Positions 4,149-34,350 of a DNA stretch of 64,000 bases are shown one piece after another (position 1 is the stretch's first letter; every line of letters starts with the position of its first letter). The notes below the pieces were generated by a model. It saw only the letters and a program-made list of their open reading frames with translations. It made no database searches and was not told the DNA's origin. The stretch comes from Planctomycetota bacterium (GTDB lineage: Bacteria; Planctomycetota; UBA8108; SXIK01): NCBI GenBank assembly GCA_965223845.1, contig CBDCXR010000004.1, forward strand, positions 7,264,001-7,328,000. Direction: 5' to 3'. Position numbers and translations under genes: made by a program.

Positions 4149-6146
4149 ATGAACGCCCCGACCTACTCTCGATTCGGACCCGCGGAGACTTCGCGCACGC
4201 GCGGAATCTCTCTCCGCGGCGTCGGACCCGCTCCGGGGCGAGACGGCGGCATCGCGCTCCTCCTCGTGCTCATCATTTTCATCGTGCTCTACCTCGTCGT
4301 GTTTCAGCTCCACTTCACCACGAAGATGGAGCAGAAGATCGCGCAAGTGCGCTACGCCGAGGTGGAGGCAGGCTCCGGACTGTTCTCGGCGGCGCTCTAC
4401 GTGAAGACCCTCCTCATGGAGGACCTGCGGCAGGATCTCGGCGAGGCCGGTGCGCAGAGCGGAGCGGGCGCGATGGGCGGTGCCCCCGGCGTCGCGCCGC
4501 CCGCGGGGCCGAGCGCTCCGGGCGGGCAGGGATTCGCCATGCCGGTCGACTCGGGCGCGGCGGCCGCCATGGCGGGCGGTGCCTCGACGTCGGTGAAGTG
4601 GTACGACTCCCTGCGCGAGAACCTCTTTCTCCCAAACGTCCAAAGCGTCGGCAACGTCGAGGTGAAGCTCCGCGTGATCGATGGCGAGCGTCGCTACGAC
4701 CTCAATCGCCTCTTCGACTACGTCCGCCTTCGGGAAGAGGAGGTCGCCGAAGGTACGGAAGACCTGCGCGAGGAAGACCTCGTCGACGCCGTCGAAGGGC
4801 GGAGCACCGAAGACGCCGAGGCGAGTCTTCGCGAGCGCTTCCTCGCCCGCGCCGACGAGCGCCAGCGCGCCAACCGGAGAGGCGTCGCCGCGGACGGCGA
4901 GGAAGGGAGCGAGGGCATGGAGGAGCTGCGGCGCGACGCGAGCGGAGCCACGGCCGTCGCGCTCGACGATCTCGATTCCTACGAGCCGGAGCCGCCGTTC
5001 CTCGAGCCGGCGCCGTCCCGCCTCCTTGCGACCGAAGAGATGCTCCGTCGCGCGATCCTCATGATGTTCACCATCAACGAAGACAACGGCTACCTCTACT
5101 CGCAGAAGCACTTCGCCGAGAACGTCGCGCAGGCGATCGTCCAGTACGTCGTCGAACGACGGCTCGAAGATTTCAACAACCGCATCCTGAGCGTGAGCGA
5201 ATTGCTCCAGCTCGACGAAGTGACGCCGGAGGTGTTCTACGGGCCCGTTCCGGATATTCCCGACGGGGAGGAGGCCGCGTTCGGCGATGTGATCCTCTCC
5301 CGCGATCGTTTCGGCGACCTCTCCGCGCGGTTCGCCTTCGACGACGAATACACCGACGACGCCGAGGCCGAGCGCCAAGAGGAGATCGCGCACCTCATGG
5401 AGCAATACGGCCGATTCGCGAACCTTCCGATCGGAATCGGCGCCGATCGACTCGCGGCGACGAGCCTCACCCGCGGCATGGAGGACTGGACGGTCGTTCT
5501 CGACGAGAACGAACAGGAGATGGTCCTCGATCCTCCCGTCCCGATCGGACTTCGGGATCTCTTTACGACGTTCTCGACCGGAAAGATCAATCTCAACTCG
5601 GCCAGTGCGCCGGTCATTTTCGGACTCTTGCTCTCGCTCGACGAGGAAGAGGGGAAAAACGTCGCTTACGGCATCGAGGATTATCGCAACCGCTTCCAGG
5701 AGGAGATGGATCCCGAAAGCGGCGTCGACCGCGTCGACGGCGCCGATACGCTCGATCTAGGACAACCGCGCCGGGAGCCTCCCCTCGATCCGACGACTCT
5801 CAGTGAAGAAGAAGCCAGTCTAGAAGCCGAATACCAGGACATGGAGACGAACTACTTTACGAGTCTCCAGCAGATCGAGCTGATCGACGGATCCGACCAG
5901 GGCCCAGAGGACCTCTTGCGCAGCGACGAGGGCGTGGAGCGCACCGACGCGGAGGGCGACACTCTCTACCGGCGCGTCCTCTTCGACCTCGAGAAGGTCG
6001 TCGTCTTCGGGAGCTCGTACTTCGAAGTGCTGATGAAGGCTGTCTCGCCGGAGAACCGTGCGGTCAAAACCGCGTCGGTGACCCTCCATCGCGACGTGAA
6101 GCGCAGCCTTCTCGAAGTGGTGATGTGGAAGGAGGAGCGCAAGTGA
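4149..6146 (+). CDS. gspK: T2SS minor pseudopilin GspK-like, unusually long with acidic insertions
   Basis: Prepilin-type G|IALLLVLIIFIVLYLVV without E5, IDGERRYDLNRL and STGKINLNSASAPV, typical of GspK. Start chosen at ATG 4149; in-frame ATG 3930 is an alternative. Confidence 0.75.
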   Translation: MNAPTYSRFGPAETSRTRGISLRGVGPAPGRDGGIALLLVLIIFIVLYLVVFQLHFTTKMEQKIAQVRYAEVEAGSGLFSAALYVKTLLMEDLRQDLGEAGAQSGAGAMGGAPGVAPPAGPSAPGGQGFAMPVDSGAAAAMAGGASTSVKWYDSLRENLFLPNVQSVGNVEVKLRVIDGERRYDLNRLFDYVRLREEEVAEGTEDLREEDLVDAVEGRSTEDAEASLRERFLARADERQRANRRGVAADGEEGSEGMEELRRDASGATAVALDDLDSYEPEPPFLEPAPSRLLATEEMLRRAILMMFTINEDNGYLYSQKHFAENVAQAIVQYVVERRLEDFNNRILSVSELLQLDEVTPEVFYGPVPDIPDGEEAAFGDVILSRDRFGDLSARFAFDDEYTDDAEAERQEEIAHLMEQYGRFANLPIGIGADRLAATSLTRGMEDWTVVLDENEQEMVLDPPVPIGLRDLFTTFSTGKINLNSASAPVIFGLLLSLDEEEGKNVAYGIEDYRNRFQEEMDPESGVDRVDGADTLDLGQPRREPPLDPTTLSEEEASLEAEYQDMETNYFTSLQQIELIDGSDQGPEDLLRSDEGVERTDAEGDTLYRRVLFDLEKVVVFGSSYFEVLMKAVSPENRAVKTASVTLHRDVKRSLLEVVMWKEERK

Positions 6147-6193
6147 CTGCGATCTCCACCCTAGTTGTCGATCCCGAGCGAAGGAGCTGACCC

Positions 6194-32557: not shown

Positions 32558-34350
32558 GCGAAGTTCTCCACGCGAAACGGTTCGGCGGGCCGACCTTCGA
32601 CCCGAACCCGCTCGAGCGCCACGGTGTAGGGACTCGTCGACGCCGTCTGGAGGACGGGATAGCCGCGTCCCCAATCATCGCCCTCGAGCGTCGCCACGAT
32701 GAGCCGGCGCCTGCGCGAAGCGACGCGGACAGTGACTTCGACGCGCGTCCGGCCGCCGGCCGGAATGAAATCGAGCGCGACGCCGAGGTCGCCGCGACCG
32801 AGCGGAGCCGCGCGGCGGAGACCATCGAACGCCCGCACTTCGAGGTCATCGATCCGGACGGGCACTCCCGCGCGCCAGGCTTCGATCGGTGCGTCGGGAC
32901 GCAGTTCCCGCGGACGAATGCGTACGCGGAGCTCGCGCTTCGCCGGGGCGTCGGGCGCGACGATGCTGAGCGACAGATCGAAGCGCCCGGTGTCTTGGCG
33001 GATCCAAAGCTCGACCCTCTCGAGCGGATCGAAGGCGAACGGAAATGCGAAGGGCTCGACGAGCGACTCGTCCCACGAAAGCGCCGCTTCGGCGTCGCTT
33101 CCCCCGCCCGCACCGAGCTCGGGCCGAACTCCGCTCACGGAAGCCGTCGACGAGAGCGCGAGCACCCGGCGAACGACCTCGAGCGGCGGTGTACCCGGCG
33201 GAGGCGTCGCGAAGCGAACGTCGAGCTCGACCCTGCCGTCGGGGCGCTCCGTGAACCAGGGTCCGAGCGCCGCTGCGGCGAGCGCGCGCGTCTCGTCTCG
33301 CGCCGGGAGTGTGAGCGACACGATCGTCACCGCGAGTGTGACGGCGGCGAGGGCGCCTACCGCCCAGCGCAGGACGCGGCGGCCGCGCCGCGGCCGCCGC
33401 GGTCGCCGCGCGGCGTGATTCGGTTCATCGCCGCGCGCAACGGCGTCGAGATCCTCGATGAGCTGATCGTAGTTCGGGTAGCGGTGCGCCGGGGACTTCT
33501 CGAGCATGCGGAGGACGACGCGAGCCACGGCGTCCGGCACGTCCGCGCGCTGCTCCCTGGGATGGGGCGTCGCTTCGTTGACGTGGGCGACGATCACCGA
33601 GACGTGCGAATCGCCTTCAAACGGGGGCCGTCCCGTCAGGAAGTGATACATCGTCGCGCCGAGCGAGTAGATGTCCGACCGGTGATCGACCTTTCGTCCG
33701 CGTCCCTGCTCGGGAGAGATGTAGTGAGGCGTCCCGAGGACGAGGCCCTCTTGGGTGAGCGAGTTCTCCGCGCCGCCGATATCCTTGGCGAGGCCGAAGT
33801 CGACGATCTTGACGTGGTCGTCCGGAGTGACGAGGAGATTCGACGGCTTGACGTCGCGGTGGATGAGGTTTTTCGCGGCGGCCTCGCGGAGTCCCGCCGC
33901 CGCGTCGCGGATCCACGCGATGGCGCGGTCGACGTCGAGCGGCCCGCTCTCGTCGAGAATCTCGTCCGCCGAGAGCCCGTCGACGAGCTCCATGACGATG
34001 TAGGTCGTGGGCGGAGCGCCGGCGGTGGCGGCAGTTTCTTGAATGCCGTAGATCTGCACGACGGCGGGATGCGAGAGGCTCGCGACCGCCCGCGCCTCGC
34101 GCCGAAAGCGCGTCCGATAACTCTCCTCGTCGGAGTACTGCGGACGGAGCACCTTCACCGCGACGTCTCGCGCGAGATCGTCGTCGCGACAGTGGTAGAC
34201 GATTCCCATGCTTCCCGTGCCGAGCTGCCGGACGACCCGGTAGGGGCCGATCCGCTCGGGGAGACGACCACCGTCCTCGATCGACCGTGCGAACATCGCA
34301 TCCGTCGATCCGGTCCAGAGGGGTCGCTGCGGAGGCAGGGTTTCATCCAT
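32545..34350 (-). CDS. Membrane-anchored Hanks-type Ser/Thr protein kinase
   Basis: LGTGSMGIVY, VAVKVL, IHRDVKPSNLL, DFGLAK, GTPHYISPEQ, DIYSLG; TM segment and extracytoplasmic domain; 13-bp overlap with the FHA activator. Confidence 0.93.
   Translation of the reverse strand: MDETLPPQRPLWTGSTDAMFARSIEDGGRLPERIGPYRVVRQLGTGSMGIVYHCRDDDLARDVAVKVLRPQYSDEESYRTRFRREARAVASLSHPAVVQIYGIQETAATAGAPPTTYIVMELVDGLSADEILDESGPLDVDRAIAWIRDAAAGLREAAAKNLIHRDVKPSNLLVTPDDHVKIVDFGLAKDIGGAENSLTQEGLVLGTPHYISPEQGRGRKVDHRSDIYSLGATMYHFLTGRPPFEGDSHVSVIVAHVNEATPHPREQRADVPDAVARVVLRMLEKSPAHRYPNYDQLIEDLDAVARGDEPNHAARRPRRPRRGRRVLRWAVGALAAVTLAVTIVSLTLPARDETRALAAAALGPWFTERPDGRVELDVRFATPPPGTPPLEVVRRVLALSSTASVSGVRPELGAGGGSDAEAALSWDESLVEPFAFPFAFDPLERVELWIRQDTGRFDLSLSIVAPDAPAKRELRVRIRPRELRPDAPIEAWRAGVPVRIDDLEVRAFDGLRRAAPLGRGDLGVALDFIPAGGRTRVEVTVRVASRRRRLIVATLEGDDWGRGYPVLQTASTSPYTVALERVRVEGRPAEPFRVENFAWPR

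Follow-up and report, generated by a model that had tools for sequence, protein, structure and literature searches.

A conserved Kelch-HEAT gene module inside a type II secretion locus of an uncultured class of Planctomycetota

Type II secretion systems (T2SSs) are usually described as about a dozen fixed Gsp proteins, while their cargo is variable and scattered in the genome. For some cargo proteins, dedicated partners or dedicated systems are documented: LipA depends on the membrane-anchored foldase LipH prior to its export by a T2SS (PMC13381987), the lipoproteins PulA and InvL are placed on the cell surface by T2SSs (PMC12802150), and the lipoprotein SslE has a T2SS dedicated to it (PMC5012682, PMC3707838). 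How T2SSs deal with lipoproteins is currently being investigated, and GspN was reported in 2025 to aid lipoprotein transport (PMC12802150). In the related type IV pili, the propeller protein PilY1 forms complexes with minor pilins and is located at the pilus tip (PMC7541494, PMC8833165), and PilC/PilY1 was modelled to dock via a short C-terminal stretch (10.64898/2026.09.18.752573). Here, we analysed a 64,000-nucleotide stretch of a Planctomycetota genome (assembly GCA_965223845.1, contig CBDCXR010000004.1, positions 7,264,001 to 7,328,000; hereafter the window), in which a T2SS locus harbours genes for putative Kelch beta-propeller lipoproteins and for HEAT-repeat proteins.

Three extra genes, which we call Kelch1, HEAT and Kelch3, are fixed inside this T2SS locus across a whole class, and for two of their products a tight complex is predicted. 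The secretion machine belongs to a known kind. What is new, as far as the literature was searched, is the conserved module and the predicted pairing of a propeller with a solenoid: in a search of sources outside the subscription journals, no T2SS with Kelch or HEAT genes was found described. This agrees with the original prediction for this stretch, which had been made from the sequence and did not recognise the arrangement from described T2SS loci. If the reading proposed below is true, the locus would provide a defined client-adaptor pair for studying how T2SSs recognise and handle lipoproteins, and a first functional handle on the cell envelope of an uncultured planctomycetal lineage. Moreover, the predicted interface between HEAT and propeller can be tested with two recombinant proteins and needs no cultured host.

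Gene calls in the window were based on Pfam and NCBIfam family scans, which we relied on for gene picking since a G+C content of 65% gives rise to many spurious open frames. Two convergent arms were found, gspK-X-L-M on the plus strand and gspD-E-F-G-H-I-J on the minus strand, with about 10 kb between them. No genes other than those for Kelch and HEAT proteins lie in the interval 9864-19398, and all of them are encoded on the minus strand. Family scans and translations thus confirm the earlier claim that the gsp arms converge on an interval of Kelch and HEAT genes only. Following gspJ after a gap of 506 bp, Kelch1 (17500-19398) encodes a lipoprotein Kelch beta-propeller (Kelch_4, 37.4 bits; lipobox residue Cys34). 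It is followed by HEAT-a (16277-17362), which is near-identical to HEAT-b, and by Kelch2 (14030-15910; 626 residues from an ATG at 15910), a recent paralog with 95% amino-acid identity to Kelch1. Then come a 54-residue remnant of a Kelch1-type C-terminus (13711-13872; 59% identity to Kelch1 574-628, E 6.3e-12) and HEAT-b (12564-13649), composed of a membrane helix, a Pro-rich linker and a PBS-HEAT solenoid (HEAT_2, 71.2 bits in three stretches; alphaRep and PBS-HEAT matches in the PDB). The last gene is Kelch3 (9864-12353), whose 829-residue lipoprotein product has two beta-sandwich domains in its N-terminal part, ahead of a Kelch propeller (Kelch_4, 39.6 bits; lipobox residue Cys48).

The three Kelch and two HEAT genes counted in the original prediction are present, but the number is inflated by a tandem Kelch-HEAT duplication, because of which the cassette has five genes. 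The HEAT segments 12563-13653 and 16276-17366 differ by one mismatch in 1091 nt, while the Kelch segments 14030-15843 and 17500-19313 are 94.6% identical over 1818 bases (genes of 626-632 residues). Near-identical HEAT copies (99.9%) next to Kelch copies of 94.6% identity suggest either that gene conversion recently acted on HEAT alone or that a second duplication occurred, and the diverged remnant at 13711-13872 points to an older rearrangement. Between Kelch1 and Kelch2, synonymous divergence (dS) is 0.17 and non-synonymous divergence (dN) 0.024; the resulting dN/dS of 0.14 corresponds to purifying selection and indicates that both copies are maintained. An assembly artefact was considered and rejected using contigs from four sequencing runs of one sample (X1-X4): depth over the shared HEAT segment, including HEAT-a, is roughly double that of the flanks, and separate contigs cross the junctions 12000-12592, 13620-14102 and 15806-16305. 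Since this is possibly the sample from which the genome itself was assembled, the support is not independent. Among the genomes examined, the tandem duplication occurs in this one only. In relatives, each locus has a single Kelch1 and a single HEAT; the exception is L028 (genome G036), where two Kelch1 genes lie in tandem. The ancestral module is Kelch1-HEAT-Kelch3.

Within the class, Kelch1 homologs were detected in every one of 41 genomes. We fetched 20 kb around 20 of these in-class matches and searched them with all 17 proteins of the window using tblastn, for which gspI is too short and too divergent. The order gspD-E-F-G-H-J-Kelch1-HEAT was recovered in 18 of the 20 loci (18 genomes of the families f1, f2, f3, f4 and f6). 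Kelch3 comes next in 16 of these 18; the remaining two stop at a contig end. Where the stretch is long enough the convergent gspL then follows, often together with gspM and gspK. The linkage to gspGHIJ, which the original prediction had proposed as a check, is therefore conserved, in the form gspJ-Kelch1-HEAT. In the source annotation, homologs are listed only as 'hypothetical protein' of Planctomycetota metagenome-assembled genomes.

Two of the 20 loci break this synteny. One is a second Kelch1 copy in genome G005 (L020) which, like three further copies (L047, L048 and L049; the extra copies belong to G005, G021 and G032), is a lone paralog with no T2SS genes nearby. The other belongs to family f5 (L030, genome G022), where gspD-E-F-G-H-J is directly followed by HEAT and a gene for a 653-residue lipobox protein homologous to Kelch3 (hhalign probability 99.8%, E 1.7e-27, 604 columns). 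About 20 kb away, the same strand also encodes the K-X-L genes of this family; the Kelch1-type genes map to different contigs. These f5 copies have retained the lipobox along with the WxDT(N/D)FEG and C-terminal motifs, and the extra and unlinked Kelch1 copies in general preserve the lipobox and the motifs predicted to bind HEAT. At the T2SS loci examined, HEAT and Kelch3 each occurred as a single copy. Homologs lying mostly away from T2SS genes had been named beforehand as evidence against a secretion-linked module; such a location was seen for part of the Kelch1 genes, namely the lone paralogs and those of f5, and for neither HEAT nor Kelch3.

To the outside, the module appears to end with the class. 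In a survey of 401 Planctomycetota genomes (23 of the class, counting G000, and 378 others), full-length Kelch1 was present in 23 of 23 in-class genomes and in none of the 378 others, where the best match reached E 6.6e-16 and the listed matches cover about 60-220 of the 629 model positions. Full-length Kelch3 was found in 22 of the 23 in-class genomes, the exception being G005 with 91% completeness and fragmented contigs; outside the class there were seven partial matches only. GspE-like genes (E<=1e-120), on the other hand, occur in 392 of the 401 genomes, with identities of 68-85% within the class and of 62-63% at best outside. We fetched eleven out-of-class loci around the best GspE matches (58-62% identical). 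All eleven comprise gspE-F-G, ten have gspD upstream, and gspH and gspJ were detected by tblastn in nine and four of them, respectively. Kelch1, HEAT and Kelch3 were found in 0 of the 11 loci (tblastn, E<=1e-3), one of which, L051, stops at gspG and is uninformative on this point. In five of these loci, gspJ is followed mostly by housekeeping genes (sigma-70, primase, rRNA methyltransferase, PolA, FtsH, rhomboid, ApbE, HisRS, SerRS, PrkA), and 4 of the 21 open reading frames scanned there had no Pfam match. A 691-residue HEAT_2 protein is encoded about 4 kb from gspJ in L054, with an architecture unlike that of the module HEAT. Since gspD-J clusters occur across classes without the module, the D-J operon is phylum-wide, with the module and the convergent K-X-L-M arm added in one class. 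Fixation within the class, combined with absence from similar clusters elsewhere, favours an add-on over a core part of the machine.

We then turned to the proteins themselves. Lipoprotein signals were judged by the lipobox consensus pattern together with conservation of the Cys residue. Cys34 of Kelch1 is kept in at least 90% of 35 sequences (preceding context VGSGC; VASGC in Kelch2), and many invariant polar residues are found downstream of it. Cys48 of Kelch3 is invariant in 14 of 14 orthologs (context LVGC). Kelch_4 scores of 37.4-40.2 bits, above the cutoff of 21.6, together with the predicted folds place these proteins among the Kelch beta-propellers. The AlphaFold2 model of Kelch1 (predicted local distance difference test, pLDDT, 89.1; predicted template modelling score, pTM, 0.87) shows one large propeller spanning residues 56-632. 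Its best structural matches are galactose oxidase (2wq8; Z 23.5, root-mean-square deviation (rmsd) 3.2, 359 residues aligned), an AA5 oxidase (5c92; Z 23.4) and GlxA (4unm; Z 21.4). The Kelch domains of KLHL and Keap1 follow at Z of about 21. Many Kelch and WD40 propellers lie within a few Z units, and in Foldseek comparisons with Kelch domains the best chain reached about 5e-13 and the other listed chains about 1e-11 to 1e-10. In the Kelch3 model, which has a lower confidence (pLDDT 78.1), the two N-terminal beta domains (about 56-310) precede a propeller that is likewise most similar to galactose oxidase 2wq8 (Z 27.3, rmsd 3.1, 342 aligned). Galactose oxidase, AA5 oxidases and GlxA thus share the fold of both Kelch1 and Kelch3, but sequence identity is only 14-16%.

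Copper-radical oxidases use two Tyr, two His and a Tyr-Cys crosslink as ligands. The invariant columns of Kelch1 contain one Tyr (Y79) and one His (H203), and no Cys is conserved beyond the lipobox, which makes a copper-radical site unlikely; assignment of Kelch1 to the AA5 oxidases was rejected for lack of conserved copper ligands. Kelch1 and Kelch3 are distant paralogs (hhalign probability 97%, E 4.8e-11, 153 columns), and Kelch3 was not recovered with Kelch1 as protein query in its own genome (E<=0.001). Both contain a conserved element, G-x-DG-x-x-x-T-x-DD-x-(I/V/L)-x-x-GG, at Kelch1 584-602 and Kelch3 393-410, which we take to resemble an EF-hand or dockerin-type calcium loop. In one Kelch1 homolog (P0037), the plain signal peptide is replaced by a long N-terminal extension with two D-x-N-x-D-x-x-x-N/D motifs, presumably dockerin-like. 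Kelch3 of this genome carries a helical, low-confidence insertion of about 70 residues (about 630-700) found in none of 13 aligned orthologs.

HEAT begins with a hydrophobic helix that lacks Cys, continues with a Pro-rich linker of about 60 residues and variable sequence, and ends in a solenoid, for which we infer a periplasmic topology. Pfam assigned HEAT families only (HEAT_2 with 71 bits in three stretches, HEAT_PBS, HEAT_EZ and HEAT). Searched against the PDB, the alignment profile retrieved alphaRep chains (E 1e-78 to 1e-20) and the natural HEAT proteins 6veh and 5n3u. In the ESM Atlas, which gives no genomic context, only generic HEAT clusters were retrieved, most commonly from Verrucomicrobiota.

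To judge the pairing, the complex of Kelch1 48-632 and HEAT 80-361 was predicted in three runs alongside three controls, each protein with its own alignment. The interface score ipSAE (interaction prediction score from aligned errors) was 0.89, 0.92 and 0.92 in the three runs, whereas each of the three controls stayed at 0.00. At least 94% of contacts are common to the runs, and the pLDDT of the partner is 90 or more. In a calibration that is only roughly valid here, as custom alignments were used, 116 of 157 solved complexes attained the same mark, compared with 2 of 215 mismatched pairs. The model thus supports binding of Kelch1 and HEAT, and the confident Kelch-HEAT interface that had been called for as a check was indeed predicted (0.92 versus 0.00 for the best control). 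In the model, the concave face of the HEAT solenoid touches three elements of Kelch1, the DER loop (98-100), the WFDTNFEGD loop (129-138) and a C-terminal segment (603-616). Core contacts are invariant or nearly so at D98, E99, R100, W130, T133, E136, G137, E611, P612, P615 and S616 of Kelch1 and at R153, E189, A259, Q288, G292, G295 and S321 of HEAT.

How does this compare with described systems? Lif/LipH foldases of Pseudomonas and Burkholderia are membrane-anchored, periplasmic, all-helical proteins whose genes neighbour that of the client, to which they bind ahead of its type II export (PMC13381987); for HEAT, such binding is predicted. HEAT fits this layout of membrane anchor, linker and helical domain, and its gene adjoins Kelch1 in 18 of 18 syntenic loci. 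Unlike Lif/LipH, HEAT belongs to the PBS-HEAT/alphaRep family, its putative client is a lipoprotein propeller and not a lipase, and its gene lies inside the T2SS locus. SslE with the T2SS-beta of E. coli, PulA of Klebsiella and InvL of Acinetobacter likewise represent lipoprotein cargo encoded with or beside its own T2SS (PMC5012682, PMC3707838, PMC12802150), and a corresponding export would apply here. However, those cargo proteins are a mucinase, a pullulanase and an invasin-like adhesin, respectively, and not Kelch propellers, and no HEAT partner is known there. PilY1 resembles the present case in that a beta-propeller gene directly follows minor pilin or pseudopilin genes (PMC7541494). It differs in that Kelch1 and Kelch3 have a lipobox and belong to Kelch families, and in that the locus encodes a GspG-type major pseudopilin and a secretin with multiple N domains.

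Taken together, we consider it possible, and tentatively favour, that HEAT acts as an inner-membrane adaptor or chaperone for propeller lipoproteins handled by this T2SS. The locus would then encode a type IV filament machine of the T2SS type with a fixed add-on of three genes, Kelch1, HEAT and Kelch3, in one uncultured class. HEAT would be a bitopic protein of the inner membrane, whose Pro-rich linker bears a periplasmic PBS-HEAT solenoid. The concave face of this solenoid may grip a folded Kelch1-type propeller at the conserved DER, WxDTNFEGD and C-terminal EPxxPS elements and may keep it beside the secretion platform until the T2SS exports the lipoprotein propellers across the outer membrane. 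Once exported, the propellers would remain lipid-anchored on the surface as binding or enzymatic proteins. What the analysis itself establishes are the genes, their class-wide order, the modelled folds, the conserved lipobox Cys and a predicted heterodimer that passes its controls; chaperone action, dependence on the T2SS, surface exposure and whatever the propellers bind are inferences. The behaviour of Kelch1 fits that of a client, as its copy number varies (two here, a pair in G036, extra copies in G005, G021 and G032) and it is unlinked in f5. Since Kelch1 leaves the locus with its HEAT-contact motifs kept, while HEAT and Kelch3 stay, the pattern fits one adaptor with one or more propeller clients.

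Several observations weigh against an adaptor for exported clients. HEAT has no sequence relation to Lif foldases by Pfam, which returned HEAT families only. Interface positions are not significantly more conserved than the rest, neither in Kelch1 (0.556 versus 0.499; one-sided Mann-Whitney p 0.13) nor in HEAT (0.449 versus 0.415; p 0.40), in a comparison whose reference set includes buried core residues, and the alignments of Kelch1 and HEAT were not paired by genome. Furthermore, strict one-to-one retention throughout the class, including genomes of 2.8-3.5 Mb, is more typical of machine parts than of cargo. The same holds for the divergence of Kelch1, which at 29-60% identity across the class is similar to that of GspD (34-56%) and lies above GspJ (27-52%). 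In f5, HEAT and Kelch3 are found at the locus without Kelch1, so that HEAT may serve the machine or Kelch3 instead. These points of retention, divergence and f5 layout are what would be expected if Kelch1, HEAT and Kelch3 were extra subunits of the machine, forming an envelope-spanning tether or a pilotin-like or secretin-supporting assembly in the roles of GspC, GspS or GspAB, in which the Pro-rich linker would let the inner-membrane HEAT contact propeller lipoproteins that are anchored in the outer membrane. Such an assembly would also accord with the predicted Kelch1-HEAT binding, with the succession of helix, linker and binding domain in HEAT, which is that of TonB-like connectors spanning the periplasm, and with the window's cluster, in which Pfam and NCBIfam scans recognised no GspC or pilotin. 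However, similar gspD-J clusters of other classes lack the module (0 of 11 loci), the copy number of Kelch1 is variable, and its unlinked paralogs keep the HEAT-binding motifs. Overall we regard structural subunits of this sort as a somewhat doubtful explanation, second to the adaptor model. A bolder form of the idea, in which HEAT spans the periplasm and locks onto outer-membrane propellers in an undescribed docking or display complex that replaces or supplements GspC and pilotin and shows the propellers at the surface, appears unlikely to us.

Alternatively, the propellers might sit with GspH-I-J-K on the tip of a pseudopilus or pilus, as PilY1 does, with HEAT priming or chaperoning them. 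Kelch1 is encoded directly downstream of the minor pseudopilin genes and has a conserved C-terminal stretch; PilY1 propellers complex with minor pilins at the tip (PMC7541494, PMC8833165) and PilC/PilY1 was modelled to dock by such a stretch (10.64898/2026.09.18.752573). In Kelch1, however, this stretch belongs to the predicted HEAT interface and to the last propeller blade. The lipobox Cys is conserved in both Kelch proteins, so that acylation and retention in the membrane are expected. PilY1/PilC is a soluble secreted protein without a lipid anchor, to which a lipobox Cys does not fit. Pfam (E<=0.01) gave Kelch families and no PilY1/PilC domain in the Kelch proteins, and PilY1 is not among the 50 structural matches listed for either Kelch1 or Kelch3, which in itself is not exclusionary. 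In addition, gspK lies on the opposite arm, and a Pfam scan of the cluster revealed no retraction ATPase. A tip adhesin is therefore very unlikely in our view. The original prediction had envisaged the propellers as dedicated substrates or tip-associated adhesins with HEAT as chaperone or adaptor; synteny and the modelled interface uphold a dedicated module with a HEAT adaptor, as a model, while the lipid-anchor Cys weakens the tip idea. It is also conceivable that Kelch and HEAT form an enzyme or receptor complex of the periplasm or envelope that is independent of the T2SS and was fixed at this place by operon history. Kelch1 paralogs away from T2SS genes (L020, L047, L048, L049), the 506-bp gap between gspJ and Kelch1 and the similarity of both propeller folds to galactose-oxidase-type enzymes point in this direction. 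Yet gene order is kept across five families with GspE identities down to 68%, HEAT-Kelch3 still follows gspJ in f5 where the K-X-L arm is about 20 kb away, and one invariant His and one Tyr in Kelch1 make a copper-radical site unlikely. Mere neighbourhood is thus improbable, and we retain HEAT as a putative adaptor of exported propellers as the working model.

The gspD-J arm encodes the features of a Gsp-type T2SS, that is, a secretin with several N domains, GspE, GspF and a GspG-type major pseudopilin. All its genes are on the minus strand. GspD (26301-29033) matched Secretin with 129.6 bits and Secretin_N with 92 bits in three stretches, the ATPase GspE with its MshEN N-domain (24516-26216) matched T2SSE with 433 bits and MshEN with 57.9 bits, and the platform protein GspF (23273-24511) matched T2SSF with 225 bits in two stretches. 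The major pseudopilin GspG (22438-22899) contains N_methyl and scored 50.5 bits for T2SSG (cutoff 21) and 76.9 bits for TIGR01710, under the cutoff of 88.85. In some relatives, a second GspG-like gene lies between gspG and gspH (L016 7924-8187, L021 7060-7344, L055 11892-12272); the window has none. Of the minor pseudopilins, the GspH-like protein (21784-22389) contains N_methyl and scored 41.4 bits for TIGR01708, under the cutoff of 80. For the GspI-like protein (21179-21740, start approximate), N_methyl was found at residues 150-171 of a long frame, and TIGR01707 (gspI) gave 19.4 bits, again under the cutoff. The minor pseudopilin in the gspJ position (19905-21089; N_methyl at residues 26-47) matched neither the gsp models of Pfam and NCBIfam nor a PDB sequence, and is encoded directly upstream of Kelch1 in relatives too.

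On the plus strand, the convergent arm starts with a candidate GspK-like minor pseudopilin (4149-6146; 665 residues from an ATG at 4149, in a frame open from 3741). It was named by its position and its pilin-like hydrophobic N-terminus, as it had no match in Pfam, NCBIfam or PDB sequences; homologs are found in the convergent arm of relatives. According to its translation, X349 (6194-7243) is bitopic: a membrane helix at the N-terminus is joined by long disordered regions to a C-terminal domain of small size. It matched no Pfam or NCBIfam family, weak homologs adjoin gspL in L042 and L046, and it is a possible GspC-like connector. The GspL-like assembly-platform protein (7355-9220) has a PilM-like N-domain (PilM_2, 45 bits; PDB PilM 2ych, E 1.5e-11) and scored 36.3 bits for the gspL model TIGR01709, under the cutoff of 65. 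A small bitopic protein, judged from its translation, occupies the gspM position (9229-9786); it has homologs in L015, L041 and L042 and no Pfam or NCBIfam family match. No GspN/AsmA-like gene was seen in the cluster in these scans.

Upstream of gspD, the range of the original prediction, which reaches to 34350, also takes in three minus-strand genes, none of which is a T2SS structural gene. ORF362 (29536-30624) encodes a secreted protein with a disordered N-terminal half and a C-terminal half weakly similar to Secretin_N (21.9 bits, under the cutoff). Homologs are located just upstream of gspD in L015, L016 and L018 (f1, f2), and from its sequence ORF362 could be a secretin-associated or GspC-like component. 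Further upstream are genes for a sigma-54 activator with FHA and GAF domains (30683-32674; Sigma54_activat 241 bits; FHA, GAF, HTH_8), a type of gene also found beside the cluster in seven other loci (L018, L022, L024, L026, L029, L046, L050), and for a Ser/Thr protein kinase (32545-34350; Pkinase 158.8 bits). At 29093-29108 (minus strand), 60 bp ahead of the annotated start codon of gspD, there is a sigma-54-like -24/-12 element that agrees with the pattern at 10 of 11 specified bases. A match of 10/11 was found in L015 also, and GGGCAT-N5-TTTGC is common to five f6 loci (L024-L027, L031), 207-230 bp upstream of the estimated gspD start. Scores of at least 10 occurred in 12 of 2000 random 430-nt windows. 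Across the window, the pattern had 12 matches versus a chance mean of 8.6, which is not above chance and makes the gspD element a lead only. No sigma-54 site with up to two mismatches was found in the gspJ-Kelch1 interval, a sigma-70 scan of 9000-24000 gave 0 sites, and terminator-like sites were near expectation (13 versus 8.9). Judged by these genes and motifs, the secretion operon may be under control of a cascade leading from the kinase via FHA to sigma-54. Outside the locus, the G+C content drops to 0.57-0.60 at 48000-52000 compared with 0.62-0.70 elsewhere in the window, and this segment could be foreign or atypical.

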